32,000 nucleotides of DNA from Rosenbergiella gaditana (GTDB lineage Bacteria > Pseudomonadota > Gammaproteobacteria > Enterobacterales > Enterobacteriaceae). The translations under genes were made by a program, and so were the position numbers. The notes under the pieces were generated by a model. It had not been told where the DNA came from. It did no database searches and worked only from the letters and a program-made list of their open reading frames with translations. The DNA is taken from positions 248,205 through 280,204 of the forward strand of contig NZ_JABBFR010000001.1 in assembly GCF_018494065.1 (NCBI RefSeq), written 5' to 3'. Of this stretch, positions 369 through 20,580 are shown one piece after another (the first letter of the stretch is position 1; the number at the start of each line of letters is the position of its first letter).

Positions 369-372
369 TGTC

Positions 373-1530: not shown

Positions 1531-1708
1531 AGTAAACCCCTTGCTAACAGATAGGGGGATAGTTGCAACTTTTGTACCAATTTAAGTATTGACGTTTTTT
1601 TGGTTTCATTGGCTAGTATGGAAACTTCTCTGCCTTACGTCGGGGAGACTGTTGCACTGATAAAGGACATTGCACTATTGTAGGGATAACTTTTTAGGAG
1701 ACAGAGCA

Positions 1709-2203: not shown

Positions 2204-2206
2204 GCA

Positions 2207-2229
2207 GAGCGCCCTAAACTGGGGCGCTC
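2207..2229. terminator. hairpin between convergent eco and cytochrome c genes (candidate bidirectional terminator)
   Basis: GAGCGCCC-taaactg-GGGCGCTC, an 8-bp GC-rich stem. The flanking U-tracts are weak. Confidence 0.45.
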
Positions 2230-2237
2230 AATCGATA

Positions 2238-5338: not shown

Positions 5339-5629
5339 TGCTTCTTATAGTTATCGATATATTTTGCCGCCAAGGGTACCGATTTTCCACGCTGGGTTCC
5401 AGCCAGTCTGTGATAAACGTGACGCTTGAATACAATTAACCCCCAGGTTTAGAGAGTTTCGCTCAGTTTATGGGAGTGGGTGGAGATAGATTAGCATCGT
5501 TGTATAGGATTAATGACTGGAATTAACACTTTTATCACCTCGTTTTATCGTTCAAAAATGTTACCCTTTTAGTTCAATGATACGTCACTGTCGGTGAGGT
5601 ATCCCTACACCCTGCATGAGGAGTAAACC

Positions 5630-6361: not shown

Positions 6362-6395
6362 GCTTTAACATTAGGCATCCTTGGATGCCTATGCT

Positions 6396-7094
6396 TTACT
6401 TTTCCACGTGACTTATCAGTTGGTCTAATTGCGCTACATCTATATCAAGCGTGTTATAGGCTTCGCTAGTGGGATTATTGATCTCGATACTGTGCTTAAC
6501 TTGATAATCAACCACTGCGTTAGCGGCAGTAAACGACAAGACATGGCCGCTAATTTTTCGATCATCACTTAAAAAGTGAAAATGAAAGCCGGGCACTGAA
6601 ATACGACCAAATAACGCTGGAGTCCAAAAACCAATTAATTGGCCAGCAATATTGTGATGGGTATCAACTTGTTGTGAGTCCGACATCTCTTGAACGGTAC
6701 GGGTTTGCGATTCATCACGCTGTGGACGCCGGATAACCACCTCATCAAAGCGGCTCTTAACATTAACGGCTAAAAAAATATTGTTGATAGCAAGCTGTTC
6801 AGATAAGCGATGCTCGAGGTTTTTATCGTTAATACCCGTGGCTTTTAACGAGTTTTCTGCCACAAAGTCGGTAACTTGTAAAAAGGGTAGTTGACGATCG
6901 TCAAGCTGGTGAAGTGACTCACCTGCCGTCGCTTCCCAAAACTCTCCTCCACATACCGTGAGTTCGCCACTAATGCCACATGAGCATCCCAAGCCAAAGA
7001 GCGTTGGGCTATGGGTAGATTTCACGGAAAAATCGCCAGCAAAGTGACCTGACATCAGCGCACCGATGGTGGAATATTGTGTAATTTTACTCAT
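6396..7094 (-). CDS. alpha-acetolactate decarboxylase family protein
   Basis: QYSTIGALMSG..FGLG...GEL at the N-terminus and GFWTP...VPGFHFHFLSDDRKISGHVL near the C-terminus resemble BudA/AlsD. I chose the start at ATG 7094 (GGAGA RBS) rather than the ORF-track start 7187. Confidence 0.65.
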   Translation of the reverse strand: MSKITQYSTIGALMSGHFAGDFSVKSTHSPTLFGLGCSCGISGELTVCGGEFWEATAGESLHQLDDRQLPFLQVTDFVAENSLKATGINDKNLEHRLSEQLAINNIFLAVNVKSRFDEVVIRRPQRDESQTRTVQEMSDSQQVDTHHNIAGQLIGFWTPALFGRISVPGFHFHFLSDDRKISGHVLSFTAANAVVDYQVKHSIEINNPTSEAYNTLDIDVAQLDQLISHVEK

Positions 7095-7249
7095 AACTCT
7101 CCGATTATTAGCGAATAAATAGTGATCAATACTCGAGGTAATGCCAGCGATATCTCTGTTTTTTTTACTGAATAAGCGTAGTATCACCTCGGCAATTTGA
7201 CTAGGCTTATCATTGAACTTAAGCGGACATATGAAACTTAGTTAAATTA

Positions 7250-8551
7250 CTAATTCAAATAGTGATTAATAAAAATAGCCGCTCTTTTAGTCACTTCAGG
7301 GAGAGACTTGACTTCTAGAGTCTCACTCTGACTATGAGCTCCCTTTCCCCAAGGGCCAAGGCCATCAAGACTGGCGCTAACATATTGTGCAATATAAGAA
7401 ATATCTGCCCCCCCACGTTCAGCAGCCGACACAGCCTGTAAGCTCGATCCCCCCAACGCCACACTAATATCGCTGAACTCAGCTAAAAGCTGCCTATTCT
7501 CATTTTTCTCCGACATAGCTGGCATTATATTGTTGAATATCAACTGGCTGGAGGTTAGTGGTAACGCGGACATCGTAATTTCACGCATTTTTTGCTCAAC
7601 CATACATTTCTGTTCATCTGATAAAAACCGTAAATCACCATGCACAAGTGTTTGAGCTGCAATGATTGTCTTCTGACCGCTGGCGTTACCGGTGTTTTGC
7701 TGCGTATCTTCCTTAACAGTCTGCCCTCCGAGAATAATGCCTGGATTAAGCGTTAACCCCGGAATATTTGAAAGGACAGTTCGAAAACTGTTTAGCACCC
7801 GTGCCGTTTCATAGATGGCACCATCCCCTGATGCAGCCTGAAATATTTTGGAGGAGTGTCCTGATTTACCACTGCTGGAAAGGTACCATTCGCTCAATCC
7901 TCGTCTTCCTGTCACCAGCTGATTTTCGGTAAGCGAAAATTCGAATCCCAGTGCAATATCGCTGCCCTGAGCGGCTTCCGTCAGTGCTTTACGTGAGATG
8001 GAGGTTGGTTTTTCTGCCTGTTCCTCATCCCCGGTAAGTACTACCGTTAGATTGGCATACTTCAATTTTCCGGCCTGATTCAGCGCCTTGAGTGCATATA
8101 AAATCGTGACGAGGCCCCCTTTATCATCAATGACTCCCGGTCCTGTTGCTGATAGGTGGTCTGGCGAAAGCGTAAATGACTGAAAAGGGCTATGGGAAGG
8201 AAAAACGGTATCCAGGTGGCCAATTATCAAAATTTTCTTTCCCGGACCGCTATGCGTAGCCACTAAACTACCGGCATGTTTCATAGAAGCGGGGAGATTG
8301 ACCCACTGTGTTTTGAAACCCAAATCATCTAATTCAATTCTGAATCGCTCCCCAACTTTTTCAACTCCGCGACGATTCCCCGTACCACTATTGATATTAA
8401 CCAAGTCCTCGAGCAGTTTTAGTTGGTTTGTTTTATGTTTATCAATGTAATTGATTAAAACGCTATCATCTGAATTTAACCTTGCATTTACTGCCGTGAT
8501 GCTGCTGAGACTGGACAGTATTAATACCAGAAATAATATTTTAGCTTTCAT
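7250..8551 (-). CDS. secreted M20-family metallopeptidase (carboxypeptidase G2-like)
   Basis: Signal peptide, then GHLDTVFP and GPGVIDDKGG motifs typical of M20 glutamate carboxypeptidases. Confidence 0.8.
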   Translation of the reverse strand: MKAKILFLVLILSSLSSITAVNARLNSDDSVLINYIDKHKTNQLKLLEDLVNINSGTGNRRGVEKVGERFRIELDDLGFKTQWVNLPASMKHAGSLVATHSGPGKKILIIGHLDTVFPSHSPFQSFTLSPDHLSATGPGVIDDKGGLVTILYALKALNQAGKLKYANLTVVLTGDEEQAEKPTSISRKALTEAAQGSDIALGFEFSLTENQLVTGRRGLSEWYLSSSGKSGHSSKIFQAASGDGAIYETARVLNSFRTVLSNIPGLTLNPGIILGGQTVKEDTQQNTGNASGQKTIIAAQTLVHGDLRFLSDEQKCMVEQKMREITMSALPLTSSQLIFNNIMPAMSEKNENRQLLAEFSDISVALGGSSLQAVSAAERGGADISYIAQYVSASLDGLGPWGKGAHSQSETLEVKSLPEVTKRAAIFINHYLN

Positions 8552-8929
8552 TTTTACTCTCCGGGCTGTACAGAGCCTGAATTTGATATGTCGGTGAGGG
8601 ACTGTAACCTGTGGTATCTGCTGTATCGCGGATACTGAGTTTTTACCTGCCGATAGTACAACACTTTCTGGTGCTGTTCGGGAACGGCCTATTTTCTGCA
8701 GTAACTACCCAACGTATGTGCCCGCTCCATTCCCTATTTCTGCCGCTGGCGTCAGATGCGACATTACGGCCATCAGGTCGATAAGCATTTACGTTACGTC
8801 ATTCATCGTGTGCTGTCACGTTTTGATTATGGCGTCAGTGTACCCTTATACATAACCATGATCTCTTCACAAGACGAGCACCCAGTTCAGCCTTCATTTC
8901 ATTTATTGCCGAATTTGTTTCTTTCTGAA

Positions 8930-9203
8930 GAAGCAGCTTCCTAGAGGATCGGTTTGAAAACCGGAATCAGAAGGGCAATTGTCAAGGGCGCTCCCCAGCG
9001 GACAAGGACTGTTTCCTTTTTGGTCCCGAAAAAGATCTCGGCTCCAACTGTAAGAATTCAGAAAATCAGACTTGGAGCCGTTTCCAGAGCCGTTTGTCAT
9101 CCCACATCGAATGTTTTCATCAGCCATCCTATAACCGCCAAAAGAAAAACAGCTACACCGATGAAAACCAGCTCTACACCATTTGTATCGTTACGCCTAG
9201 TGT
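8930..9203 (-). pseudogene. decayed 5'- and 3'-truncated copy of the prophage membrane-protein gene (homologue of 13838..14269)
   Basis: The nucleotide sequence aligns by eye with 13990-14262 at high but imperfect identity. Translated in the homologous frame it lacks a start codon and has in-frame stops (e.g. APSLIF*ILTVGAEIFFG, PIL*EAA). Confidence 0.75.
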
Positions 9204-9309
9204 TGATTCTGGTTCGTCTGGAGAAACGGGTAACGTAGAATCACTGTGATAGTCGCCAGTTAACGACCAGAGTCAACGCTCGCCGCCAGATTCCCCCTGC
9301 ATTCGCATT
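9203..9309. repeat. att-proximal tail repeat, copy 1 (pairs with 20445-20552)
   Basis: TTGATTCTGGTTCGTCTGGAGAAACGGGTAACGTAGAATCA...GATAGT.GCCAGTT.ACGACCAG.GTCAACG occurs at both places. In each case it runs into a dif/dif-like XerC arm. Confidence 0.85.
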
Positions 9310-9337
9310 AGTGCACATAATGTACAACAATTAAAAA
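9310..9337 (+). other. degenerate dif-like Xer site 1
   Basis: AGTGCACATAA-TGTACA-ACAATTAAAAA. The XerC arm matches dif at 9/11 positions and the XerD arm is degenerate. Confidence 0.6.
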
Positions 9338-9346
9338 ATGTTATAA

Positions 9347-9892
9347 GATTTCGGTGCATCAGGTAAAGGTTACTCCGTTTCACAGGCTCCCGGTCTTTGG
9401 CGAATTTATGACACCGATGGTACTTTTGTCAGACTGGAAGAAGCGCCTTTAGAATCACCGCAGATTGAGCCGACTGATATTGCGTTACTCGCAGCAGGTG
9501 TTTTCCGCATTTTCTTTGCTAGCAGGGTGTTACTGCAAAGCGGAGTCAGAACGGCCATCACTGTAAAACTTAGTCAGAGTACGGTCAGTTTTCTACGTGG
9601 GCGATTGAAGGCGGGGTTCTCAGCTCGCAGTCTTAAAATGACAGAAACTGCTGCGAAGCACATGCAGAACCCCGGTCGCTATGTCCCTTTACAAATTCAG
9701 GAAAAAGCTATCCGTTATGGCAGACGAATGCCTGATCCAAAGAAAAAACCAGGGCTTTTTCGCTATGAGACTGAAATGTATAGACTTGTTGAGAACAAAC
9801 AAGCTAAAGGAACATATTATTACAAAAAGTATACTCTCGAAGTCCTTGTTCGTGAGAAAGACTTGACAATCAGTCATTTCCAGTATTTTTAG
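9347..9892 (+). CDS. orphan C-terminal toxin domain fragment of a polymorphic toxin (DUF4258-like putative RNase)
   Basis: The frame is open from the stop at 9344-9346, immediately after dif-like site 1, with no ATG (the ORF track uses GTG 9527). The tail TETAAKHMQNPGRYVPLQIQEKAIRYGRRMPDPKKKPG resembles the H..R..(G)I....I..G...DP pattern of small CdiA/Rhs/WapA-type C-terminal nucleases. A small acidic ORF follows directly. Confidence 0.4.
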   Translation, partial: DFGASGKGYSVSQAPGLWRIYDTDGTFVRLEEAPLESPQIEPTDIALLAAGVFRIFFASRVLLQSGVRTAITVKLSQSTVSFLRGRLKAGFSARSLKMTETAAKHMQNPGRYVPLQIQEKAIRYGRRMPDPKKKPGLFRYETEMYRLVENKQAKGTYYYKKYTLEVLVREKDLTISHFQYF

Positions 9893-9900
9893 AGGTAATT

Positions 9901-10329
9901 ATGATTGATATTGAAGTTGGGATACTGAAATTTCAACTGTCACCTTATGAAAGAGAACATGCCGAAGAGGACCTATCAGACGACTCGATAAAGACGTTTG
10001 TTGAATATAAGCTGCCAGTATTAACGACACAGTACAGCACTGCATTTACGGTTCCTGAACTTATTGAGTTAAAGAAAGAAATTCAATCTTTCTATGAAGG
10101 TCTGATTAAACAGGAGCCTCGTCCTGATATATTTTTTGACAGTTTAGAACATCATTTTAGTTTACAGTTCAGGCAAGTTAGTCATCATGATATTGCAGAA
10201 GTAAATATTGTGATGAAACCAGAAGATAATGCAGACAGTGTCAAAGTCACCGACACATTTTATCTTGACCAGAGCTACTTTCCGGCGTTGCAGTCCGGCC
10301 TTGACGAGATGATTAACTGGCAAAACTGA
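9901..10329 (+). CDS. putative cognate immunity protein (WapI-like pattern)
   Basis: 142 aa, acidic, and starts 8 nt after the toxin stop. The C-terminal ..FYLDQSYFPALQSGLDEM.. resembles the DQSYL motif I recall for WapI-family immunity proteins. Confidence 0.5.
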   Translation: MIDIEVGILKFQLSPYEREHAEEDLSDDSIKTFVEYKLPVLTTQYSTAFTVPELIELKKEIQSFYEGLIKQEPRPDIFFDSLEHHFSLQFRQVSHHDIAEVNIVMKPEDNADSVKVTDTFYLDQSYFPALQSGLDEMINWQN

Positions 10330-10352
10330 CAGGAATAGCTTGTCTGCGCACT

Positions 10353-10380
10353 GGTGCGCATAATGTATGACGCTATGTCA
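10353..10380 (+). other. dif-like Xer site 2
   Basis: GGTGCGCATAA-TGTATG-ACGCTATGTCA. The XerC arm is perfect. The XerD side is degenerate, but a better XerD-like CTATGTCACAA lies 3 nt further on. Confidence 0.65.
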
Positions 10381-10395
10381 CAAAAGGGTTCTGAG

Positions 10396-10427
10396 CCATT
10401 CCGGTAGAATGGGGTTTACCGGAATGG
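10396..10427. repeat. perfect 11-bp inverted repeat (hairpin)
   Basis: CCATTCCGGTA-N10-TACCGGAATGG. Confidence 0.7.
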
Positions 10428-10532
10428 GGAGGGTTCGTTTATAATAAAGCGAATGAGTTAGAACTCCATACTGTACAGGGGTTGTAAGCGGGAACCCGCC
10501 AAAATTTTGTGGCGTCTGCCATTCTTAAGCTT

Positions 10533-10808
10533 TCAGCCTGATGACAGTGTCAGTCCGTCAATCATCGCGTCCAGATCGATCTCTTTCCCTTCAGTGATAA
10601 AAGTGTAATGCCCGTTTAAAAAGATATGCTGCCATGCGACGGGCGACATCCGTTTGAGGAACTCCAGCCCCCGGGTGTTACCGGTTGCTTCATATCTTTG
10701 CAACAATCGCGATAACAGGGCTGAGTTATAATAAATAATCACGATGCTGAGTAGCCGGCCACACTGATTGCTGATTTCGAGCTCTATGTCATTCTGGCCC
10801 GTCAGCTT
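10533..10808 (-). pseudogene. tnpA: Tn3-family transposase, C-terminal ~92 codons only
   Basis: ..LLSIVIIYYNSALLSRLL...LKRMSPVAWQHIFLNGHYTF matches the extreme C-terminus of Tn3-family TnpA. The frame is closed by a stop at 10809-10811. Confidence 0.75.
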
Positions 10809-10859
10809 CTATCAATGGTACGGTATCAATCTCTTTGATGGCCCCTCAAACGTACATTT

Positions 10860-11220
10860 ATGACTGAAATACGCATTGGCTATGCACGCTGCTCTACTGA
10901 CCGACAGGACCTGGCCGCACAGCAGGAAGCCCTCGTCAGCCTGGGCGTCTCCTCGGACCGAATTTATACCGAACGTGCTGGCGACGTTTGCCGAGTTTGA
11001 AGGTGATCTGATACGTCTGCGTACCAGAGAAGGTATGGCTATCGCCAGAGCAAAAGGCAAGCTGAAAGGTAAACAGCCAAAATTATCAGAGAAGCAGCAG
11101 CAGGAACTGTGTCGTATGCACGGTAGAGGGGAACATTCTATCAGTGATCTGGCAGAACTGTTTTCAGTATCGCGGCCGACCGTTTACCGGACGCTTATAC
11201 GAGGCAGAGAAAAGCAGTAA
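10860..11220 (+). pseudogene. tnpR: serine recombinase/resolvase with internal deletion and frameshift
   Basis: The N-terminus MTEIRIGYARCSTDRQDL (catalytic Ser region) in frame 0 stops at 10998-11000. The C-terminus VLATFAEFEGDLIRLRTREGM...SVSRPTVYRTL (HTH) continues in another frame. About 70 central residues are missing. Confidence 0.8.
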
Positions 11221-11246
11221 TCATTTTATTTAAACAAGGACGAATT

Positions 11247-11729
11247 ATGGCTCAGGATATTTTTATAAAAATTGATGGTATCGAAGGTGAATCTCAGGAT
11301 TCCACCCATAAAGGAGATATTGAGGTACTTAACTGGGACTGGTCCGTTAGTCAGACATCAAATATGCATTCTGGTAGTGGTGGAGGGGCGGGAAAATGTA
11401 CTGTTGAGGATTTTCATTTTGAGCACTATATCGACAAATCCAGTACTAACCTTCTTCAGTATTGCCTGACCGGAAAGCATATTCCCGAAGCAGTATTAAC
11501 AGTCAGAAAAGCGGGCGGCTCACCGCTGGAATATCTGCGCATTACCCTTCAGGAAATTATCATCACCGCCGTACATCCTGTTTATTACAACACCATGCGT
11601 GTACCACGCGAGGCGGTAAGCCTGGCGTTCTCCAGAGTACAAATGGACTATGTGTTGCAGAATGCAGAGGGAAGTACAGCAGGTACGGTTTCCATGGGAT
11701 ATGACATTAAAGCCAATGCAGCTATTTAA
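11247..11729 (+). CDS. hcp: type VI secretion tube protein Hcp (TssD)
   Basis: 160 aa. IFIKIDGIEGESQDSTHKGDIEVLNWDW...GGGAGK....DF.F.HYIDKSS..L...C..GKHI is the canonical Hcp1-family N-terminus. Confidence 0.9.
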   Translation: MAQDIFIKIDGIEGESQDSTHKGDIEVLNWDWSVSQTSNMHSGSGGGAGKCTVEDFHFEHYIDKSSTNLLQYCLTGKHIPEAVLTVRKAGGSPLEYLRITLQEIIITAVHPVYYNTMRVPREAVSLAFSRVQMDYVLQNAEGSTAGTVSMGYDIKANAAI

Positions 11730-11756
11730 GTACAGGCAATATAAAGGAATATAATT

Positions 11757-12379
11757 ATGTTATTCGTTGATAAAAATGGTTTAGTGGATGCAGAGCGAAT
11801 TATTGTCAAGCGATTCAGTACAATAGAGCGTGGCAAGCTGGACAAAGTGAACGGGATAATCGTTCATCAGACTAACAGTCCGACAGCCCAAAGCACATTC
11901 AACAGCTACAATCAAACCTCAGCGAATGGCGCTCATTTTTTAATAGACAAAGACGGTAAGATTTATCAGACAGCATCTTTGTTAAAGTAACCTGGCATGT
12001 AGGATTGATGCAATCCAGATGCTTTTTGAAAAAAAAATGTAAACCAACAGAGGTTAATCTTTTGGCTTTACATACTAAAAGTTACTGGAAGAGAAAAATA
12101 TCTCAACAAATATCTGATATAGAAAAAGGGAAAGAATTTCCTGACCGATTCCCAGGCAATACCGATAGTATTGGAATTGAAATTGTTGGACTTGCTATTG
12201 ATGTTAAAGGTAAACCAGAGCCTGTCTATGAAGCGGTTAATGATAAACAAAATGATTCTCTTAGATGGTTGATTGCTGAACTTGCTTCAACATTCAAAGT
12301 TTCTATGACTGAAATTTACAGACACCCTGATGTAGGCCGGAAAAATGAAACAGAAGCGGGTACAGCAGAATGGAAATAA
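11757..12379 (+). pseudogene. PGRP/Amidase_2-type N-acetylmuramoyl-L-alanine amidase, putative Hcp-linked T6SS effector, split by a 1-nt frameshift
   Basis: ORF1 ends ..GIIVHQTNS...GAHFLIDKDGKIYQTASLLK*. The next frame reads KVTWHVG...NTDSIGIEIVG...ND.Q..SL..L...L......I.RHPDV...KNETE. Together these form one Amidase_2 domain. The break lies at TTAAAG (11982-11987). Confidence 0.7.
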
Positions 12380-12753
12380 AGAAGATAGTATTCCTTGTTT
12401 TTTTATTCATCCCCACATTTACTCAGGCAAGGGTAGTAAATGAGATAAATATAATGGAAACAGGTGCCTGGGATAGTGATAACAGAGCTGAATATGAAAA
12501 AGAAGGTTGCAAGACATTTAATCCGACTAAAGAACAACTAATCCAATATTTCTCTCAGGCTCAGGAATCATCCTCCAGTGGTAACTGGATAAATGAGTAT
12601 TATTCGCCTTGTATTGCATCTGGTAAAGTTACTTTTAAGGATGGAGATTCAGGTGCGTGGAGAATACATTCCAGTGGACTCGGATGGGTGGATTTTATTA
12701 ATAAAACAAGACGATATTTCTACTTTACTGACAATGATTGGGAGAAAGAATAG
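12370..12753 (+). CDS. secreted/periplasmic small protein, putative immunity to the amidase effector
   Basis: Signal peptide MEIKKIVFLVFLFIPTFTQA. The start overlaps the effector stop (ATGGAAATAA). Two Cys residues. The position is typical of T6SS peptidoglycan-effector immunity genes. Confidence 0.55.
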   Translation: MEIKKIVFLVFLFIPTFTQARVVNEINIMETGAWDSDNRAEYEKEGCKTFNPTKEQLIQYFSQAQESSSSGNWINEYYSPCIASGKVTFKDGDSGAWRIHSSGLGWVDFINKTRRYFYFTDNDWEKE

Positions 12754-12762
12754 ACAATACAT

Positions 12763-12785
12763 AAAGCCTGTTAAAAACAGGCTTT
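12763..12785 (+). terminator. rho-independent terminator after the immunity gene
   Basis: AAAGCCTGT-taaaa-ACAGGCTTT followed by a T-rich tract (TTTATTCAAGTTTTATTT). Confidence 0.7.
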
Positions 12786-13017
12786 ATTCAAGTTTTATTT
12801 AGAGCGACGTTTCACAATACGTTATGGTAAATCATAGGAGTGTAAAATGGCTGATGGTGAAAAGTTGACAGTTATATTGCCTGGCGAAATGCTGTGTTAC
12901 CTGAAATCTGTCTACCTGTAGCCTGAAAATTGACATCATTTCCTTGTAATAAGAATTCAGCACACAATCAGACCTAAGGCCGCAAGACATTTCAACTATT
13001 ATGCGTACCGTTATCTA

Positions 13018-13049
13018 GGTGCGCATAATGTCGACGCATTATGTTGAAA
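13018..13049 (+). other. dif-like Xer site 3 (left junction of the filamentous prophage) with extended central region
   Basis: GGTGCGCATAA-TGTCGACGCA-TTATGTTGAAA. The XerC arm is perfect and the XerD arm matches at 9/11, but the spacer is 10 bp instead of 6. An inverted XerC-like arm TTATGCGTACC lies at 12999-13009. Confidence 0.65.
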
Positions 13050-13050
13050 A

Positions 13051-13081
13051 GGCCGCTGCGAAAATATCTCCCGCAGCGGCC
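13051..13081 (-). terminator. rho-independent terminator of the antisense accessory operon
   Basis: GGCCGCTGCG-N11-CGCAGCGGCC, a 10-bp stem. On the minus strand it is followed by TTTTCAA. Confidence 0.7.
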
Positions 13082-13118
13082 TCTTTAGCATAATGTCATT
13101 GTGCGAACCAATTATTTA

Positions 13119-13463
13119 TTAATAATCATGACGACCTTGGCTCCGTTCAATTTCATCAATCATCGCATCAACATCTTGTTTAAATTGAAAGTTTAGATGA
13201 CTCCATCCGAAATCACCTGCTTCGTAGGTGAACTCATGCCCTTTTTTTGTTGTCAATTTAAAGAAGTAATCACCAGATCCATAACCGATTAGTTGAATGT
13301 CGCACCAGTAAAGATATGTTATGTCTAATACAGCCATGTCAGGCGAATTCATTTCAGAAAAAACATGCGCTTTGCTTGCACCCGGCACAGGCATATTGTA
13401 AATATACTCACCGCCATGTGCAGTTCTAACCTTTACTTTATAAACCCTTGATTTTTTAGCCAT
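13119..13463 (-). CDS. hypothetical soluble protein (prophage accessory gene 3)
   Basis: 114-aa ORF, last gene before the strong terminator. I recognise no motif. Confidence 0.5.
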   Translation of the reverse strand: MAKKSRVYKVKVRTAHGGEYIYNMPVPGASKAHVFSEMNSPDMAVLDITYLYWCDIQLIGYGSGDYFFKLTTKKGHEFTYEAGDFGWSHLNFQFKQDVDAMIDEIERSQGRHDY

Positions 13464-13482
13464 TTATGCCGCCGCGTTAATT

Positions 13483-13884
13483 TTATAAATCATTTCGCAT
13501 TGATTCTATTAGTTTATTAAAAGCATCGTGTCTTTCTTCTCTTGGTCCATCATTCGTATCGACAATTTTTTGCGAATAGTGGACGACCTGTTTTGAGCCA
13601 AACAAAGAACAATGCGTCTGCCATAGTGCATATTCTTTTGATGCTTCTTCCGATGGGGAAATTGCAGACTTGTGAATGGATGACAATAACCCTAAATATG
13701 CATTTCTTTTTTCTTCGTATAACCGTTCATCTTTTTTTGTTTTTTTATTTAAGAGGCTGGTAATGGCTGAATTTAACATAGTCCCTATCCCTAACCCCCC
13801 GATAACCCCTAATATAATGTTGTAATCCATACTATTATTACCAGTAATATGAATTTCTTCTGTGCCACCAATAAAGCAGCCCAT
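13483..13884 (-). CDS. hypothetical single-pass membrane protein (prophage accessory gene 2)
   Basis: TM segment YNIILGVIGGLGIGTMLNSAITSLL, then KKTKKDE and a helical soluble part. The real start may be ATG 13830 (M19), 7 nt after the upstream stop. Confidence 0.5.
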   Translation of the reverse strand: MGCFIGGTEEIHITGNNSMDYNIILGVIGGLGIGTMLNSAITSLLNKKTKKDERLYEEKRNAYLGLLSSIHKSAISPSEEASKEYALWQTHCSLFGSKQVVHYSQKIVDTNDGPREERHDAFNKLIESMRNDL

Positions 13885-14269
13885 ATCCTACAATAAGAAT
13901 CCCGAAGAACATCAGGGACATTCCCCAACCAGTTCCGTACCACGAAACCATATCATCGAAAACCAATCCGCCAACGTCACGAACTCCAGCAGCTTCTTTA
14001 AGGATCGGTTTGAAAACCGGAATCAGAAGGGCAATTGCCAATGGCGCTCCCCAGCGAACAAGGCCAGTTTCCATTTTGATCCCGAAGAAGATCCCGGCTC
14101 CTACTGCAAGAATCCAGACAATCAGGCTTGGGGCCGTTTCCAGAGCCGTTTGCCATCCAACATCGAATGTTTTCATCAGCCATCCTATAACCGCCAAAAG
14201 AAAAACAGCCACACCGATGAAAACCAGCTCTACACCATTTGTTTCGTTACTCCTACTCATCTCTTTCAT
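13838..14269 (-). CDS. hypothetical four-TM inner-membrane protein (prophage accessory gene 1)
   Basis: 143 aa with four hydrophobic segments. A decayed second copy lies at 8930-9203, so the gene belongs to the conserved element backbone. Confidence 0.6.
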   Translation of the reverse strand: MKEMSRSNETNGVELVFIGVAVFLLAVIGWLMKTFDVGWQTALETAPSLIVWILAVGAGIFFGIKMETGLVRWGAPLAIALLIPVFKPILKEAAGVRDVGGLVFDDMVSWYGTGWGMSLMFFGILIVGYGLLYWWHRRNSYYW

Positions 14270-14369
14270 CCTTTTTTTTGCATAGAAATTTTAGCCGCTA
14301 AAATTCTTCACATCGCCGCGAAGCGGTTCGGGGTTCTGTGACACCCGAACTTTGGTATGGATTCCCATA

Positions 14370-14585
14370 CTACCGATGATGCATTGTCATGATTTCCCGC
14401 TCGACTCGTGCTCTCTCGGTAAGCTCTTCTGCGGCTTCTTTTGCATAATCATCAATCAGATGATTAACAATGTCTGTCCATGAGATCTGTGATCCAGCCT
14501 TCTGACTGGCATCTATCGCCATCCTCTCCAGCTTCATCTTCCGCTCAGCAGTAATGGCCATTGTTGTTCTTTTAGGTTTTTGCAT
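14370..14585 (-). CDS. small ribbon-helix-helix-like DNA-binding protein, putative prophage repressor
   Basis: MQKPKRTTMAITAERKMKLERMAIDAS..ISWTDIVNHLIDDY fits a strand-helix-helix layout. It is divergent from gII across a repeat-rich region. I chose the start at ATG 14585 (AGGTG RBS). Confidence 0.5.
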   Translation of the reverse strand: MQKPKRTTMAITAERKMKLERMAIDASQKAGSQISWTDIVNHLIDDYAKEAAEELTERARVEREIMTMHHR

Positions 14586-14626
14586 TTGTTCACCTGGATC
14601 ATAGAAGGTCATTTGTATGTGAGTAT

Positions 14627-14715
14627 ACATGCGTACCAAATACCCATGCAGTTATGCTTGCATACATGCATTCACATGCGATGTTATTTTTTTACGGCAT
14701 ACATGCATACATGCA
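14627..14715. promoter_or_regulatory. ACATGC / TGCAT-AC-ATGCA repeat cluster between repressor and gII (operators and/or origin iterons)
   Basis: ACATGC occurs at 14627, 14664, 14674, 14701 and 14709. The palindromic unit TGCATACATGCA occurs at 14660-14671 and 14704-14715, with a near copy (G instead of the first T) at 14696-14707. Confidence 0.5.
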
Positions 14716-15844
14716 TAGGGGTTCTTGGGTGTTTTACGACTGGCTCTCGATTGAACAGGATTTTGGTTATCAGCTTCCTATTCTTGGTGATGTTGCATAT
14801 CAGCGCATTCACCTTGAAACGGGTGAGGGTAGCTCACTTTCCCAGCCAGTATTTCAGCATAAGGGTTCATTTTGCGATGTTGTCTCAGTCTCTATAAGAG
14901 GCTCGGTACTTAAGATTACGGGTAATCCTTCACGCTGGAACAGACTTGATAACCTTTTTGGTCTGACTTCTGTTGATGCTTGTGTCGCTGTTTATAACAG
15001 CATCCTCTTTGATTTGGGCTTACCGCCTTTTACAAAATGTACAAAAACTTTTTTTAGCCAAACTAAAGAGAATGAAAAAGTAACGCTTATTTCTGATGGT
15101 GCAATTATTCGTGAGCTACATATCACCTCAAATAAATCCACTGGAAAAGGCAATGAGGATGAATATATATCAGGCTTATCAACGCAACCTTATAGAAATA
15201 GTGTTCCTAGACTTCATAGTAATGGTAAGTCAGTTGATTCGTTGTCTAAAAAGGGTAATGTTAACTTAATATACCCGACTGTTTATAATAAAGGGCATGA
15301 ACTTGCATTACATTCCCTGACTAAAATAAAAAATAAATTTGGTTCTGATTCAGAGCAAGTGAAACATATTAATAAAGTAATTGAATATTGCGAAGAGAAT
15401 GGAATCGTTCGTTTTGAACAGAAATTAAAATCACGTTATTTGCAGAAAAATAATCTTTTATTCTGGGGGCTATCTGATTACTCCATATTAAACGAGTTAT
15501 ATAATACATTTTTGAATTTAGATGAAAAACTATCGGTGAATGCTATGGAATTTGAAACTATAAGCGAACATTTAATCTCACAGGGTATTGTTGATACGGT
15601 AAGAGCGGCTAATACAACTTCTATGTATGCCATTCAATGGTTTCATGGTCACTCTTTCGATTTTTCAAAGTCCGCTGTAAAGATTCATCGAGCAAGGCTT
15701 AGAAGAATTGGTATCGATATTGCGCAGCGCTGCAATGTAGCTAAGTTTTCACCTGTTATCACCAGAGAAGTCAGAGAAATTAAAGTTAAAGATTGTGTTA
15801 TTCCATCATGGTATTTGAAGCCATCACATGTAAAAGTTGCTTAA
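14711..15844 (+). CDS. gII: rolling-circle replication initiator (Ff gene II protein homologue)
   Basis: The position and the motif VRFEQKLKSRYLQKNNL (f1 pII: VRFEARIKTRYLKSFGL). The start is uncertain (ATG 14654, ATG 14711 or GTG 14729). Confidence 0.75.
   Translation: MHRGSWVFYDWLSIEQDFGYQLPILGDVAYQRIHLETGEGSSLSQPVFQHKGSFCDVVSVSIRGSVLKITGNPSRWNRLDNLFGLTSVDACVAVYNSILFDLGLPPFTKCTKTFFSQTKENEKVTLISDGAIIRELHITSNKSTGKGNEDEYISGLSTQPYRNSVPRLHSNGKSVDSLSKKGNVNLIYPTVYNKGHELALHSLTKIKNKFGSDSEQVKHINKVIEYCEENGIVRFEQKLKSRYLQKNNLLFWGLSDYSILNELYNTFLNLDEKLSVNAMEFETISEHLISQGIVDTVRAANTTSMYAIQWFHGHSFDFSKSAVKIHRARLRRIGIDIAQRCNVAKFSPVITREVREIKVKDCVIPSWYLKPSHVKVA
15545..15844 (+). CDS. gX: putative pX (in-frame internal start within gII)
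   Basis: Internal ATG at SVNAMEFET.., collinear with the f1 pX start (GDSMNIYDD). This is an inference by analogy only. Confidence 0.35.
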   Translation: MEFETISEHLISQGIVDTVRAANTTSMYAIQWFHGHSFDFSKSAVKIHRARLRRIGIDIAQRCNVAKFSPVITREVREIKVKDCVIPSWYLKPSHVKVA

Positions 15845-15856
15845 TGGAGATATGTA

Positions 15857-16135
15857 ATGATTAAAATTGAAATTAAACCATCACAAGCTGTAGCCGACAC
15901 TCGTAGCGGTGTATCTAAAACAACTGGCAAAGCTTATACGATCCCTGAGCAATCAGCGTATATTTTCCTTGGTGGTGACTATCCACAGATGTTCAAGATT
16001 AATCTTGAGAACGGACAACCTCCATATCCGGCAGGGCTTTACTCTCTTCATGAGTCCAGTATTTATGTAGGTGACTTTCAAAAACTAAGAGTCGGAAAAA
16101 TAGTACTTGTCCCTTATCAAGATTCATCTAAGTAG
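15857..16135 (+). CDS. gV: ssDNA-binding protein (Ff gene V protein homologue)
   Basis: MIKIEIKPSQA..TRSGVS...GQPPYPAGLYSLHESS..VGDF compared with f1 pV MIKVEIKPSQA..TRSGVS...GQPAYAPGLYTVHLSS..VGQF. Confidence 0.9.
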   Translation: MIKIEIKPSQAVADTRSGVSKTTGKAYTIPEQSAYIFLGGDYPQMFKINLENGQPPYPAGLYSLHESSIYVGDFQKLRVGKIVLVPYQDSSK

Positions 16136-16144
16136 ATTATTAAT

Positions 16145-16231
16145 ATGGATGAATTAACCCAGATTCTTATAGCATCCGGTATTGTCATTTCTTTTGGGCT
16201 AGGAGCAATAACGGCGGGGGTACTTCGCTAA
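16145..16231 (+). CDS. gVII: minor coat protein pVII-like (28 aa)
   Basis: Not in the ORF track. MDELTQILIASGIVISFGLGAITAGVLR is a hydrophobic mini-protein at the Ff gVII position, and its stop overlaps the next start (TAATG). Confidence 0.6.
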   Translation: MDELTQILIASGIVISFGLGAITAGVLR

Positions 16232-16326
16232 TGTATATTGCCTATTTCTTTGGGGCTTATGCCTTTGGCTTAGCTCTTTTCTATGCGGTCGGTTCATTTA
16301 AATCATTAACTGACCGTCTAATGTAG
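16231..16326 (+). CDS. gIX: minor coat protein pIX-like (31 aa)
   Basis: Not in the ORF track. MYIAYFFGAYAFGLALFYAVGSFKSLTDRLM is a hydrophobic mini-protein at the Ff gIX position. Confidence 0.6.
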   Translation: MYIAYFFGAYAFGLALFYAVGSFKSLTDRLM

Positions 16327-16355
16327 TTTTCTATGTAATCAATGGAGTTATTTTT

Positions 16356-16595
16356 ATGAAAATCTTATCTACCGTAAAATCAAAAATCGCTGTTGCTTCA
16401 ACTGCACTTTTTGTTTCTGCAAGCTGTTTCGCAGCGGGTGAAGGTGCATCTACTGATTATGCCGGGCAGGCTATGGACTCTCTGTTAACTCAGGCTAACG
16501 ATCTTATTGCTAAAGTCTGGCCTGTTGTAGTCGCTGTTGTCGGAGCTGGTCTGGCTATCCGTCTTTTCAAAAAGTTCTCCTCAAAAGCTGTTTAA
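16356..16595 (+). CDS. gVIII: major coat protein (pVIII homologue)
   Basis: Signal peptide ending ..CFA. The mature part has an acidic N-terminus, a hydrophobic core and the basic tail [12 protein letters not shown] (f1: IKLFKKFTSKAS). Confidence 0.9.
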
Positions 16596-16603
16596 TATCT
16601 ATC

Positions 16604-16622
16604 AGGGGCACTTGCTGCCCCT
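16604..16622 (+). terminator. terminator after gVIII
   Basis: AGGGGCA-cttgc-TGCCCCT followed by TT. This is the same position as the Ff post-gVIII terminator. Confidence 0.55.
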
Positions 16623-16642
16623 TTAAATTAAAGCGGGCCATT

Positions 16643-17872
16643 ATGAAAAGGGAAATATTATTTCTTTCCGCTCTTTGTTTACCTTCATTTTCACATGCTG
16701 ACTCATGGGAAAGCGTTTCTAAATCTACCTATCAAAGCTCTGCATATTCAGAAAGCAAGCAAATAGTAAATCAGGATGGTACTCAAACCACTGTATATTA
16801 TATTGATGCCGCTATGCAGTCCTCAGCTTGTCAGGCTGCTAAAGACAGTGCTAAAAGTGTATTTGAACAGGTCAAAGTAACCTATCAGGGCGTTTGGCCT
16901 GATTCTGAATTTCGTCTCGTTACGGCTGATGCTTGTACTTATAATGGTTCTCCCGGCCAGCAAGATAAATTCTGGTCTTTAGCTGCTTATATCGTTGGCG
17001 ATATTCAACGCACTATTCCCGATGAAAAACCTTCCGAACCTACGCCAGAAGAAATTTGTGAAGCAAAACCACCTGAAAATGGTGTGTTCAATAATGTCTA
17101 TTCTGATTCTGGTGATCGTTATATTTATTATAATGGCTGCGAGTACGAAGCCACTGGCGTTATTGTTTGCCAGAGTGATAGCTCTGTTTGCGCTGCAACG
17201 TGGAAGCCAACCGGAACGGTAGCGGACTCATCCGATAAACCTTCTTCTCCTGCTGGCGATGGCGGTGACACCGGAGGAGATGAGGCGGATAGTGGCGATA
17301 ATGGAGGTAGCGATACAGGCGGCAGTTCTGGCAGTAGTAATGGTTCAAATCTTACCAAAGATGATATTCAGTCAGCTATGGAGGGCGCTTCGCCTAAAGT
17401 CGCCAGTGAAATTTATGACAAGCTAACGGAAAAAGATACCTCATCTGATGATAAAAAAACGTCTGATGAACAGACTAAAAATAATATAAATCGTCTTGGT
17501 GACTCTATAAATAATCTTACCCGTGGTGCTGCGCGTTTTGCTGACGCTTCCGGTGGTGACTCCCGTTATGGAAAAGGTGACTCTGAATTAGATAGTGCTT
17601 CAAATTTGGCAGAATCTGAATTAGGGATAGCTAAAGAATCTCATGGGGCATTATGGGAAGCATTTTTAAATAAAGGTGCGATGCTGCCTAATTTACCTAA
17701 TGGTAATGGTTGTTCTGACTTAATTATTTTTCCAGGAGAGGTTTATCAAATTGATATCGAATGCGATAAATTACTTTCTATTAAAGATGCACTTTCATGG
17801 ATCTTTTACTGCCTTACATTTTGGTATGTATTTACATCTTTAACTTCATTACTTCGTAAAGGGGATGAGTAA
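16643..17872 (+). CDS. gIII: minor coat/adsorption protein (pIII-like)
   Basis: Signal peptide, Cys-rich N-domains, a Gly/Ser/Asp-rich linker ([31 protein letters not shown]) and a hydrophobic C-terminal anchor. Confidence 0.8.
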
Positions 17873-18213
17873 TGCCTTTCTTATTGGGTATTCCAGCACT
17901 GTTACGTTTTCTTATTGGTCTTGTTCCTTTATTGATTGGCTATGTGGCGAGTTTTATTGCTCGCCTTGCAACTAAAACAGGGTTGATTGCTTTTGCACTT
18001 GTTGCATTAATTACAACTACTGTGACGCTCTTAATGCAATATCTTGCCGAGGTTATGTACAACGGTCTTCCTGCTGATTTTTCCCATTTAATGGCATCTG
18101 TATTACCTGACCATTTTCAGGCTTGCATTAATGTCATTATGGTTACTCGTATTAGTGTTTTCGTCTTCGACTTAAAACAAAAATTCCTTGATTATGCGAA
18201 TAGGGTTATATAA
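17872..18213 (+). CDS. gVI: minor coat protein pVI homologue
   Basis: [14 protein letters not shown].. compared with f1 MPVLLGIPLLLRFL... 113 aa, with a TAATG overlap with gIII. Confidence 0.85.
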   Translation: MPFLLGIPALLRFLIGLVPLLIGYVASFIARLATKTGLIAFALVALITTTVTLLMQYLAEVMYNGLPADFSHLMASVLPDHFQACINVIMVTRISVFVFDLKQKFLDYANRVI

Positions 18214-19308
18214 ATGGCGGTTCATGTTGTAACAGGTAAATTAGGCTCAGGTAAAACACTGGTCAGCGTGTCCAGAATACAGGAAAGATTAGCTAAGGGA
18301 TGTCCTGTTGCCACCAATTTAGACCTTAAATTACATAATATGCCGATGGTAGGTCGCTATGCAAAAAAAACGCGCGTCATTCGCATTCCTGATAAACCAT
18401 CGTTAAATGATTTATTGGCAATTGGCATAGGCAATACGTCTTATGATGAATCCCGTAATGGTCTTTTAGTGCTTGATGAATGTGGTACTTGGTTTAATTC
18501 CCGTTCATGGGGCGACAAGGATAGACAACCTGTTATTGACTGGTTTTTACATGCCCGTAAATTAGGTTGGGACATCATATTTCTCATCCAGGATGTTTCC
18601 ATCATGGATAAACAGGCGCGATTAGCTCTTGCTGAACATGTTGTTTATTGTCGTCGATCGGATAAATTAAATATACCTATTATTGGCTCTCTTATTAATC
18701 TTCTTTCAGGTTCACGTTTCTCTTTACTAAAGGTACATTTTGGTATTGTTAAATATGGCGACAATGTAAATTCAATCACTGTTGACAAATGGATATATAC
18801 TGGTAAATCTCTTTACTCCGCTTATAACACCAAGCAGACTTTCACAGACAATTATTCTCTCGGTGCTTACTCATATCTACCTCCTTTCATCACTCATGGT
18901 CAGTTTTCAGTTAATAGAGGATTTAAATACCATATGCGCCTGACGAAAATTTATTTTCGCAAATCCAATCGATTAATATTAATACTTTCATTTCTGATAT
19001 TGGGGCTTGGAATAGGTTTCTGGCTAAAATCCGAGGAGATTACTAATCAAACTTCGGCTATTAAATCTGTTAGAGCTGAACAGGCGAGGGCGGTAACGCC
19101 TAATAATGCCGATGATTTACCGAGACTTTCTATCAACTCTTTCACTCAACTTGGTTTTGATGTTTCCGTTACCTTTATTGATGCTAGGGGTATGAAATAC
19201 CAGTATTTTGATTTAATCAAAGATGGTTATTCCGTTGATATTAAAGATCCTTGCCGGATTGACATCAGAAAAGACCGTTATTTACAGACTGTAACTTGTC
19301 AGGAGTAA
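18214..19308 (+). CDS. gI: assembly ATPase pI (Zot family)
   Basis: MAVHVVTGKLGSGKTLVSV (Walker A), LLVLDECGTWFNSRSW, IDWFLHARKLGWDIIFLIQD and LAEHVVYCRR are nearly identical to f1 pI blocks. Confidence 0.92.
   Translation: MAVHVVTGKLGSGKTLVSVSRIQERLAKGCPVATNLDLKLHNMPMVGRYAKKTRVIRIPDKPSLNDLLAIGIGNTSYDESRNGLLVLDECGTWFNSRSWGDKDRQPVIDWFLHARKLGWDIIFLIQDVSIMDKQARLALAEHVVYCRRSDKLNIPIIGSLINLLSGSRFSLLKVHFGIVKYGDNVNSITVDKWIYTGKSLYSAYNTKQTFTDNYSLGAYSYLPPFITHGQFSVNRGFKYHMRLTKIYFRKSNRLILILSFLILGLGIGFWLKSEEITNQTSAIKSVRAEQARAVTPNNADDLPRLSINSFTQLGFDVSVTFIDARGMKYQYFDLIKDGYSVDIKDPCRIDIRKDRYLQTVTCQE
18934..19308 (+). CDS. gXI: putative pXI (internal in-frame start at Met241 of pI)
   Basis: MRLTKIYFRK aligns with f1 pXI start MKLTKIYLKK, at the same codon number. 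This is an inference by analogy. Confidence 0.4.
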   Translation: MRLTKIYFRKSNRLILILSFLILGLGIGFWLKSEEITNQTSAIKSVRAEQARAVTPNNADDLPRLSINSFTQLGFDVSVTFIDARGMKYQYFDLIKDGYSVDIKDPCRIDIRKDRYLQTVTCQE

Positions 19309-19315
19309 TATTACA

Positions 19316-20395
19316 ATGCGCTCACTTCTTATTGTTTTTTTATTTTTTTGTTCATTTTGTATTTCTGCTGAAACTGTTAATCTCAATAATTCATCTGTTC
19401 GTTCTTTTGTACAATGGTATTCATCAAAAACGGGTAAGCCCGTTATAGTTAATCCGGATGTTAAAGGAGCCGTGACAGTTTTTAATGCAGATGTAAATCC
19501 GACCAATATTGATGATTTTTTTAAATCAGTATTAAATGCCAACGGCTTTGTGATGCTTTCCGGTAATCCTGCTTTGGTATCTTTGCCGTCTAAACTACCA
19601 TCACAGATGGCGGCTGAACCAGATGATACAGATAATAATCTTTATGATGCCATACAATCCGATTCATCTTCTCAACCCGTTTCTGTGGCTTTTACCGTCA
19701 GAAATTTTAAGCTGACAAAAGTACGATCGTCTGATATTCAGCAACTGGTAAAAATTTACCTCGATTCTAATGGCGGGGGGAATGTCGTCGACTATCCCGG
19801 CAATAATTCGCTTCTCGTTTCTGCGCCGGACGAATTACTGCCAGTTCTGACTGATTTTATCAATTCCGTAGACGTTGCTCGTGATCAGGTTTTAATTCAG
19901 TCTCTGATGTTTGAAACCAGCTTGTCCGATGGTGTTGATTTGTCGTTTGCTGCGGGTTCTGCATCTGGGCATAAGGTAGCAGGGGGCTTTAATACTTCGG
20001 CGTTGGGTAGTGCATTGTCGACGGCGGGCGGCTCTTTTGGCATTTTTGATGGTAATGTACTGGCCTTATCCTTGCGTGCGGTACAGAGTAACTCCCGCTC
20101 TAAGGTGATTTCGACGCCCCGAATTCTTACCCAGTCTGGCCAGACCGGGTACATTTCTGTTGGTAAAAATGTACCCTTTATCACAGGCAAGGTTACGGGT
20201 GAATCCGCTGGGGTAAATAATCCATTCCAGACTATCGAACGTCATGATGTTGGCGTGTCTCTAAAGGTGACGCCTGTTGTCATGGGGAACGGTCAGCTTG
20301 TTCTTACGATTGATACCCGCGCTGACTCAATTAGCAATGATGAACAGGCATCCGATATTATTACTAATGATTTACCAACGATAAAGGGCGAGTGA
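19316..20395 (+). pseudogene. gIV: secretin pIV homologue, C-terminally truncated
   Basis: Collinear with f1 pIV up to ..ADSISNDEQASDIITN (about 20368), e.g. NVPFITGKVTGESAGVNNPFQTIERHDVGVS. It then diverges (DLPTIKGE*) and lacks the final secretin-domain segment (f1: QRSIATTVNLRDGQTLLLGGL...). Confidence 0.75.
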
Positions 20396-20444
20396 TGGGA
20401 TGAACAAGCCTGAGTGGTGAAGTCAGGCCGTTCATTTACTGCAT

Positions 20445-20552
20445 TTGATTCTGGTTCGTCTGGAGAAACGGGTAACGTAGAATCATCATCGATAGTAGCC
20501 AGTTGACGACCAGTGTCAACGAATCACGGCACATTCCATCTACATGCGCATT
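20445..20552. repeat. att-proximal tail repeat, copy 2 (pairs with 9203-9309)
   Basis: See copy 1. This copy ends ...CATGCGCATT immediately before the dif XerC arm. Confidence 0.85.
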
Positions 20553-20580
20553 GGTGCGCATAATGTATATTATGTTAAAT
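20553..20580 (+). other. dif: chromosomal dif site (XerC/XerD dimer-resolution site)
   Basis: GGTGCGCATAATGTATATTATGTTAAAT is a 28/28 match to the E. coli dif consensus. Confidence 0.9.

Follow-up and report, generated by a model that had tools for sequence, protein, structure and literature searches.

The locus and its three genes

The 32,000-nucleotide (nt) stretch of Rosenbergiella gaditana DNA analyzed here (contig NZ_JABBFR010000001.1, positions 248,205 to 280,204; hereafter the window, to whose first letter all positions refer) carries a filamentous prophage of the UPphi type (IKe/I2-2-like), which is integrated at dif and spans 13018-20580. At its left end, three open reading frames (ORFs) lie on the minus strand, opposite to gII-gIV, as the ORF list confirms. 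They run in the same direction as a small ribbon-helix-helix (RHH)-like ORF, a putative repressor, and lie just downstream of it. They are also proximal to the attachment (att) site, on the lysogeny-side strand of what is a dif-integrating inovirus, as an initial annotation of the locus had held. Hydropathy agrees with the membrane topologies proposed at that time: four hydrophobic segments in the protein nearest the regulator (the 4-TM protein, TM for transmembrane), one at residues 5-23 in the next (the single-pass protein) and none in the third, which is soluble. The initial annotation took the three genes for a single functional cassette. The anatomy found here is a constant phage gene followed by a sharply bounded slot, whose contents are independent of one another and in some sibling phages carry defence-type domains.

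All three ORFs are genes under strong purifying selection rather than chance ORFs, since homologues exist for all of them and the ratio of nonsynonymous to synonymous substitution (dN/dS) is low. Against the E. coli or Pantoea-like copies it is 0.098 for the 4-TM gene, 0.033 for the single-pass gene and 0.040 for the soluble gene. Homologues of the 4-TM protein begin at its fourth codon, which gives a protein of 140 amino acids (aa) with its start at 14260. Among homologues of the single-pass protein, 21 of 24, including all of those outside inoviruses, start with MDY/MEx and are 115-120 aa long, so the ORF as called (ORF133) is over-extended. The start is most likely the ATG at 13830, which would give a protein of 115 aa (ORF115) beginning 7 nt past the 4-TM stop codon, and with this start the 47-nt overlap with the 4-TM gene vanishes. 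The longer N-terminus is seemingly conserved in E. coli because it overlaps, in another frame, the conserved C-terminus of the 4-TM protein.

A constant gene

The 4-TM protein matches phrog_4174 along the full length of the profile (E=1e-75, residues 4-143 of the called ORF on profile positions 1-140 of 140). In Enterobacterales its homologues fall into 41 clusters; the mean column identity is 81%, and the conservation spans Salmonella, Klebsiella, Citrobacter, Pantoea, Lonsdalea and Yersinia. The gene is present in 128 of 5,426 complete E. coli genomes. It is kept in all of the ~38 related loci described below while its neighbours vary, and in two of them (L032 and L033) attP follows directly after it. 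The earlier proposal that the gene belongs to the core of the element family is thus borne out, both by the phrog_4174 match and by its presence in these loci.

In a tblastn search of deposited phage genomes, including the non-integrating relatives I2-2 and If1, the 4-TM protein has no match; the UPphi study describes IKe and I2-2 as being without the accessory genes (PMC7307601). The absence from I2-2 and If1 indicates that these relatives make virions without the protein and that its presence is linked to an integrating lifestyle. A lysogeny-associated phage function is most likely. Superinfection exclusion at the inner membrane is the guess we favour, and its sole basis is the absence of the gene from the non-integrating relatives.

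A bounded slot with exchangeable cargo

Blastn comparison with eleven related loci delimits the variable interval to the base: similarity ends at 13113 and restarts at 13833/13838, at the 4-TM stop codon. The attP side up to 13113 is 91-100% conserved, whereas the content of 13113-13833 differs from phage to phage. The attP hairpin shows the same 91-100% conservation beside differing cargos in loci of E. coli, Izhakiella and Phytobacter. A census of the interval from the 4-TM stop to the attP hairpin covers ~38 loci from E. coli genomes, species-representative genomes and IMG/VR. Its weight is mainly on the IMG/VR and E. coli loci, the scan of the genome collection for the 4-TM gene, with over-specific patterns, having given 7 loci.

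At least 13 slot states occur among the ~38 loci, the empty slot included. The slot is empty (10 nt) in L032 and L033 and holds an ORF114-like gene alone (401 nt) in L028 and L049, ORF114 being the soluble protein of the window. The state of the window, an ORF115-like gene followed by an ORF114-like gene (718-724 nt), is otherwise found in one E. coli phage type. The commonest state (786 nt) combines a Zn-ribbon protein of 91 aa with a membrane-anchored protein of 159 aa (TM-159). Three states have defence-associated domains: an AbiJ_NTD4 + DUF7014 protein (L035, L038, L042 and L044; match at 1e-77), a REase_DpnII-MboI-domain protein with DUF6953 (L039, L040 and L043; 7e-59, and PADLOC Aga_Helical-REase at 1e-34), and a CAP12/Pycsar-type TIR protein (L050; CAP12/PCTIR TIR at 4.5e-20). 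The others are a 250-aa membrane protein (L002), a 321-aa protein (L024), a 374-aa membrane protein (L041), and pairs of 98 aa + 262 aa (L037, L045), 155 aa + 123 aa (L048, L052) and 89 aa + 240 aa (L023, L051). PADLOC searches with the Zn-ribbon/TM-159 and 250-aa cargos yielded nothing beyond weak noise of the zinc-ribbon or coiled-coil kind. All cargo variants are co-oriented with the 4-TM gene and start 7-141 nt past it. The suggestion that the genes lie where lysogenic-conversion or defence genes would be expected thus finds support in the AbiJ-like, REase-domain and TIR-domain proteins that hold the same slot in sibling phages.

The Izhakiella australiensis D4N98 sibling phage (L021, NZ_MRUL01000039.1) is 95.7% identical to window 13838-20239 but carries a cargo of the commonest type (Zn-ribbon + TM-160). 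It forms a separate 8.3-kb contig of very high coverage (cov 336), which may represent an active phage, either as its replicative form or as a collapsed tandem array. A trace of exchange exists within the window. The remnant of a sibling phage (module A) had been described as retaining the 4-TM gene as its only coding sequence. The 4-TM piece is indeed there (268 nt, 8932-9199, 91%), but it is not the only one, as the remnant also has 81 nt of a TM-159 family cargo gene (8859-8939). Its right-end 41 nt (9203-9243) are identical to 20445-20485. As judged from these alignments, the remnant records a cargo swap. The simplest explanation of such swaps is homologous recombination between co-resident sibling phages, because the siblings have both flanks in common, a sibling remnant lies in the window, and tandem or heterogeneous copies are reported for UPphi and YpfPhi (PMC7307601; PMC4266046).

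Table 1. Positions of the genes and sites at the prophage end and of related features in the window
Feature	Position	Strand	Remarks
Sibling-phage remnant (module A)	8859-9243	-	81 nt of TM-159 cargo gene, 4-TM codons 9-95, 41-nt right end
attL / attP-derived forked hairpin	13018-13117		dif-like site, GC-rich tip, inverted dif-like site; left boundary of cargo slot
dif-like site	~13023-13050		GGTGCGCATAATGTCGACGCATTATGTT; recognized by sequence
GC-rich tip hairpin	13050-13085		'terminator' of the initial annotation
Inverted dif-like site	13092-13117		recognized by sequence
ORF114 (as called)	13119-13463	-	114 aa; second cargo gene; small soluble protein, mobile on its own
ORF133 (as called)	13483-13884	-	133 aa
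ORF115 (trimmed ORF133)	13483-13830	-	first cargo gene; N-terminal membrane anchor + helical bundle (predicted); alignment of 25 homologues
4-TM ORF (as called)	13838-14269	-	143 aa
4-TM protein gene	13838-14260	-	140 aa; ORF open to 14269; right boundary of cargo slot
Conserved hairpin element	14313-14369		between RHH-like ORF and 4-TM gene; fold z -3.2
Small RHH-like ORF	14370-14639	-	putative repressor; phrog_2503, E=4e-26; upstream of 4-TM gene
gII-gIV morphogenesis side	14654-20395	+	gII, gV, gVIII, gIII, gVI, gI/Zot, gIV by PHROG/Pfam
gII	14654-15844	+	396 aa; G2P family, PF05155
Chromosomal dif (attR)	20553-20580	+	GGTGCGCATAATGTATATTATGTTAAAT; exact dif by sequence

The two cargo genes

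None of the three proteins has a match in Pfam, NCBIfam, PADLOC or PDB. PDB sequence searches gave nothing below E=0.1, and a PHROG scan of the trio gave, apart from phrog_4174 for the 4-TM protein, only a weak phrog_13166 for ORF133 (E=0.003). In PADLOC-DB v2 no family is hit by ORF114 or the 4-TM protein, and the only one for ORF133 is AriA at E=0.024.

ORF115 is modelled by AlphaFold2 (AF2) with good confidence (pLDDT 88.5) as one long helix with a membrane anchor, followed by three shorter helices. Among 1.84 billion representatives, 256 clusters are recovered by an exhaustive profile search; since nearly all are 110-125 aa long, ORF115 is a single-domain family. Foldseek matches in PDB are generic helical bundles at E ~1 (CnrX and the QseE sensor), rejected as non-specific. 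Matches in BFVD are to uncharacterized siphovirus proteins of equal size (best E=1.8e-3, TM-score 0.84) and carry no functional information. A tblastn search of deposited phage genomes with ORF115 gave no match. The settings of the relatives are varied. In an Edwardsiella Mu-like prophage a homologue stands alone and antisense between the Mu G and I homologues, and an IMG/VR contig likewise has one in the Mu G/I position, which we take to be where Pseudomonas Mu-like phages carry anti-CRISPR genes. In Aeromonas islets homologues adjoin an integrase, whether or not a different inovirus is present. More distant relatives (30-52% identity) are known from a Yersinia ruckeri plasmid, with a Tn3 transposase as neighbour, and from Piscirickettsia, where they are flanked by insertion sequence (IS) elements. 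To judge from these contexts, ORF115 belongs to a moron family that is spread across several kinds of mobile element and is mobile on its own.

The Aeromonas islets have a structure of their own. In L016 and L019 (1-10500) the ORF115 homologue and a tyrosine integrase are constant, and beside them there is one of two unrelated inoviruses, of the Rep_trans/RstB type or the Phage_GPA type, or no phage. The small gene may there be part of an integrase islet acting as a landing site.

ORF114 relatives are rare, amounting to five clusters plus the E. coli inovirus copies. No match to ORF114 was found in Pfam, NCBIfam, PADLOC, PHROG or PDB. Its AF2 model, from a 5-sequence alignment, has a pLDDT of 65, and with this low-confidence model Foldseek finds no PDB match at E<=0.001. 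An ORF114-like gene is the sole cargo in some E. coli UPphi prophages. The closest relative (86%) is on Pantoea ananatis plasmids and a related contig, downstream of DUF1795, an Rhs-WHH toxin and SMI1/SUKH immunity; it lies three genes downstream of an SMI1/KNR4 immunity gene in an Rhs region, with no recognizable toxin adjoining. Other relatives are on Salmonella conjugative plasmids, beside toxin-antitoxin (TA) modules. The neighbours in the Pantoea-like and Salmonella contexts were compared, and none are in common.

The Pantoea array raises the question of whether ORF114 serves as orphan immunity to a polymorphic toxin of the type VI secretion system (T6SS) or Rhs kind, in which case the benefit would be in interbacterial competition and not against phages. 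The dif region of the window, which also holds a WapI-like immunity gene and an Hcp-amidase islet, is in keeping with this. However, ORF114 matches no immunity family in Pfam, its neighbours in the Pantoea array lack a toxin signature, the Salmonella copy lies beside TA modules and type III secretion system effector genes rather than such toxins, and the low-confidence model gives no match, all of which makes an immunity role quite improbable.

One system, a pair or independent genes

The initial annotation expected that the genes of a cassette would be conserved together in related elements. They are not: the slot has 13 or more states, and every one of the genes also occurs apart from the other two. 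The soluble gene is present at loci that lack the single-pass gene, and the single-pass gene at loci that lack both of the others. Of the 5,426 complete E. coli genomes, one has the pair as found in the window, and three others have an ORF114-like gene only. Within the pair divergence is discordant, ORF115 being 88% identical to the E. coli inovirus copy while ORF114 is 57-62% identical to its E. coli counterparts and 86% to that of Pantoea.

A joint exclusion, abortive-infection or holin-like system of the 4-TM, single-pass and soluble proteins, as originally modelled, would account for the tight packing on a common strand and for the 7 nt between the 4-TM stop and the ORF115 start, a spacing that could allow translational coupling. 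A membrane-anchored protein is also present in half of the cargo types, which could hint at work with the constant 4-TM protein. The 4-TM gene is nevertheless found beside an empty slot and beside 12 unrelated cargo sets, some of which are a single gene for a soluble defence-type protein, and all three genes are present in only one of the 128 E. coli genomes that have the 4-TM gene. A three-protein system is hence very improbable.

A smaller unit could be made of ORF115 and ORF114 only, with a membrane effector or toxin and a soluble partner, antidote or sensor, the 4-TM protein being a mere neighbour. In the window as in E. coli UPphi prophages, the same two families follow one another in the same order across short gaps (19 nt and 11 nt), and that the pairing persists despite differing divergence could mean that it is selected. 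Yet an ORF114-like gene is the only cargo in L028 and L049, and no ORF115 relative is nearby on the Salmonella or Pantoea plasmids. ORF115 relatives are in turn solitary in the Mu-like prophage, in the Aeromonas islets and beside Tn3 or IS elements, and neither protein matches any TA, Abi or PADLOC model. We regard the two-gene module as unlikely. The reading we prefer, and hold to be probable, is of two unrelated, individually mobile cargo genes beside one constant phage gene, not of a three-gene system.

Proposed working of the slot

The arrangement can be viewed as two layers. The constant layer is the 140-aa protein of the phage backbone, predicted to be a four-helix inner-membrane protein. 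The exchangeable layer is the slot, which has its exact borders at the 4-TM stop codon and at the attP hairpin and here contains ORF115 and ORF114. The cargo is presumably co-transcribed from one or more lysogeny-side promoters, with transcription ending at the attP hairpin; read-through from the lysogeny side is suggested because all cargos are co-oriented and start so close to the 4-TM gene. Most likely the cargo genes would shield the lysogen from other phages or mobile elements, each acting by itself, ORF115 for example by exclusion at the membrane. A protective role is suggested by the slot position together with the AbiJ-like, nuclease-domain and TIR-domain company in sibling phages.

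Small inner-membrane proteins expressed from the prophage occur among the morons and superinfection-exclusion proteins of temperate phages, such as PfsE of Pf4 and gp15 of HK97. By description, ORF115 is like them in its accessory position, both within the Mu-like prophage and within the slot of the inovirus. A more specific proposal is that ORF115 is a new single-gene exclusion or defence factor, that the 4-TM protein is an exclusion or membrane-docking protein with which membrane-anchored cargo cooperates, or both; we put this forward tentatively and consider it rather doubtful.

Several points weigh against the reading of independent, protective cargo beside a constant lysogeny gene. The ORF115 and ORF114 families are in the same order in two diverged phages, that of the window and that of E. 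coli, so they may be a functional pair. Nine of the 12 non-empty slot types have no defence annotation, which makes guilt by position weak, and the function of the three proteins is without support from matches in Pfam, NCBIfam, PADLOC, PDB or Foldseek-PDB. A scan for consensus promoters detected no convincing one on the minus strand ahead of the 4-TM gene. The prophage copy itself looks damaged, with a truncated secretin and without the h1/h2 genes of its relatives, which makes expression in this strain uncertain. Finally, the equation of the 4-TM protein with a published UPphi gene, considered next, is based on position and frequency only.

Relation to known systems

In UPphi, according to Shapiro and Putonti, three reverse ORFs lie beside dif, of which h3 is conserved (221/229) and h4 and h5 are variable (56-57/229) (PMC7307601). 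The 4-TM protein is most probably this h3. In the ECONIH2 prophage the reverse ORFs encode 159 aa, 91 aa, the 4-TM protein and 60 aa, an order that is consistent with h5/h4/h3. The prophage of the window resembles UPphi in its IKe/I2-2-like morphogenesis genes, in integration at dif, and in having a near-constant first and variable distal reverse ORFs between gII and dif. It differs in its unmatched gII and gV, in the lack of h1/h2, in the truncated secretin, and in carrying ORF115 and ORF114 in place of the commonest h4/h5-type cargo (Zn-ribbon 91 aa + TM-159).

Exchange at the same end is known from other inoviruses. The attL-side ORFs differ between YpfPhi (YPO2271/YPO2272) and CUS-1 (orf1/orf1a) (Derbise and Carniel, 2014; PMC4266046). 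These too are dif-integrated enterobacterial inoviruses in which unrelated attL-end ORFs are swapped between near-identical phages, and YpfPhi also has an attP made from paired inverted XerC/XerD binding sites. Their morphogenesis genes are distinct, however, and UPphi and YpfPhi are reported to share <20-30% aa identity outside gII/gV. Filamentous and tailless prophages of Vibrionaceae have a single accessory hotspot that is enriched in defence and TA genes and contains mostly unannotated genes (PMC11630473, 2024). Here also one variable locus lies between conserved flanks, one of which is often a regulator in Vibrionaceae, and defence genes are present in some relatives. The phage lineages and hosts are different, though, the flanks in the present case are the 4-TM gene and the attP hairpin, and the defence share given here is in raw counts.

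The arrangement has thus already been described, and the window is an ordinary further case, with cargo that was not previously discussed. If the preferred reading is true, it adds one more content, two uncharacterized small-protein families, to a slot documented in enterobacterial and Vibrio filamentous prophages, which will not surprise a specialist and makes no long-standing question testable. The base-exact boundaries of the slot, the 4-TM stop and the attP hairpin, mean that its contents can be harvested systematically from genomes. The recognizable defence-type siblings make the unannotated occupants (ORF115, ORF114, the Zn-ribbon/TM-159 pair and others) candidate small defence or exclusion proteins. 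The 4-TM protein, being conserved and absent from non-integrating relatives, is a defined target for asking about lysogeny-specific function.

The prophage backbone

Gene I of the prophage has 75% nt identity to gene I of I2-2, and the genes from gVIII to gIV are 73-96% identical in aa and ~80% in nt to those of UM146/ECONIH2-type E. coli prophages. The ECONIH2 prophage has the same architecture, the 4-TM gene included, and its host is named as a UPphi host in the literature (Shapiro and Putonti, 2020; PMC7307601). The hipA and SDR genes border the region as they do in E. coli. The replication genes are an exception: gII (396 aa) and gV (92 aa) of the window (14654-16135), compared with L001 9870-11251, fall outside the YpfPhi/UPphi type, and they gave no blastp match to gII and gV of UM146, an E. 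coli UPphi. Together with the conservation of the flanking RHH-like ORF, 4-TM gene and morphogenesis genes, this indicates a swap of the replication module within an otherwise collinear phage. A gII remnant was sought in the neighbouring modules of the window, and none was found.

The right end of the prophage is damaged (19316-20552). The match of the secretin to the 421-aa gIV of E. coli stops at residue 351 (window 20368), and the 102-aa and 77-aa E. coli proteins of h1/h2, the two UPphi-specific genes that follow gene IV, gave no tblastn match in the window. The loss of h1/h2 looks like a deletion in this prophage copy, which may be incapable of virion export.

Upstream of the 4-TM gene, most E. 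coli copies have a 60-aa RHH-like regulator, and in APEC E19057 and L023 the regulator is 150 aa. The RHH-like ORF of the window is 61% identical to the 60-aa ORF at the equivalent position in E. coli UPphi prophages and is probably really ~60-70 aa long. A stretch of it (14437-14573) has 77.7% identity to the If1 'major intergenic region'; either If1 has an unannotated small ORF there, or the stretch is also non-coding in role. Short matches (91-100%) to the hairpin element that separates this ORF from the 4-TM gene occur in 658 of the 5,426 E. coli genomes, and 424 of the match places are plasmid-borne, one example being the vicinity of IncFII repA/yacAB. The element may act as a single-strand initiation signal or a minus-strand origin. 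In L023 (Klebsiella spallanzanii, 198-7500) there are tandem mini-elements with gII, gV, the 150-aa regulator and small ORFs. They have no recognizable morphogenesis genes, and the last unit carries the 4-TM gene with the 89 aa + 240 aa cargo. These mini-elements may be satellite-like derivatives.

The att structure and neighbouring dif modules

The prophage is bounded by a phage-borne dif-like site within 13018-13117 and by dif at 20553-20580, both of which are present as expected for integration at dif. The latter, GGTGCGCATAATGTATATTATGTTAAAT, we take to be identical to E. coli dif. Folded as single-stranded DNA, the 100-nt forked hairpin at 13018-13117 has an energy of -30.5 kcal/mol (z = -8.7). 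An Rfam scan of 12800-14900 gave sub-threshold miRNA noise only. The strong terminator said to touch the att site is real as a hairpin, being the tip of the forked attP structure; its identity as a terminator was not upheld, as a pattern scan made no call. The attP hairpin may still end transcription as well. A forked attP has been described for CTXphi and proposed for YpfPhi (PMC4266046). As in attP(+) of CTXphi, two inverted dif-like sites, a packaged-strand duplex that is an Xer substrate and an unpaired centre are predicted for 13018-13117 (PMC4266046; PMC4246890). The sequence, however, is unrelated to the Vibrio sites, and the Xer substrate here is predicted from the fold.

The dif-like site of the prophage, GGTGCGCATAATGTCGACGCATTATGTT, is also the last in an array of dif-like sites (9302-13050) that, with the true dif, comprises 9302-9325, 10345-10368, ~13023-13050 and 20553-20580 and bounds small modules. 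One such module has a 121-aa ORF and a WapI-like immunity protein (9901-10329, PF24716). Another has a broken serine recombinase (10860-11220) and Hcp (11247-11729), and continues with an Amidase_2 split over two ORFs (11757-12379) and a 127-aa protein with a hydrophobic N-terminal stretch (12370-12753). These modules look like T6SS effector/immunity islets that are stacked at dif as Xer-dependent elements.

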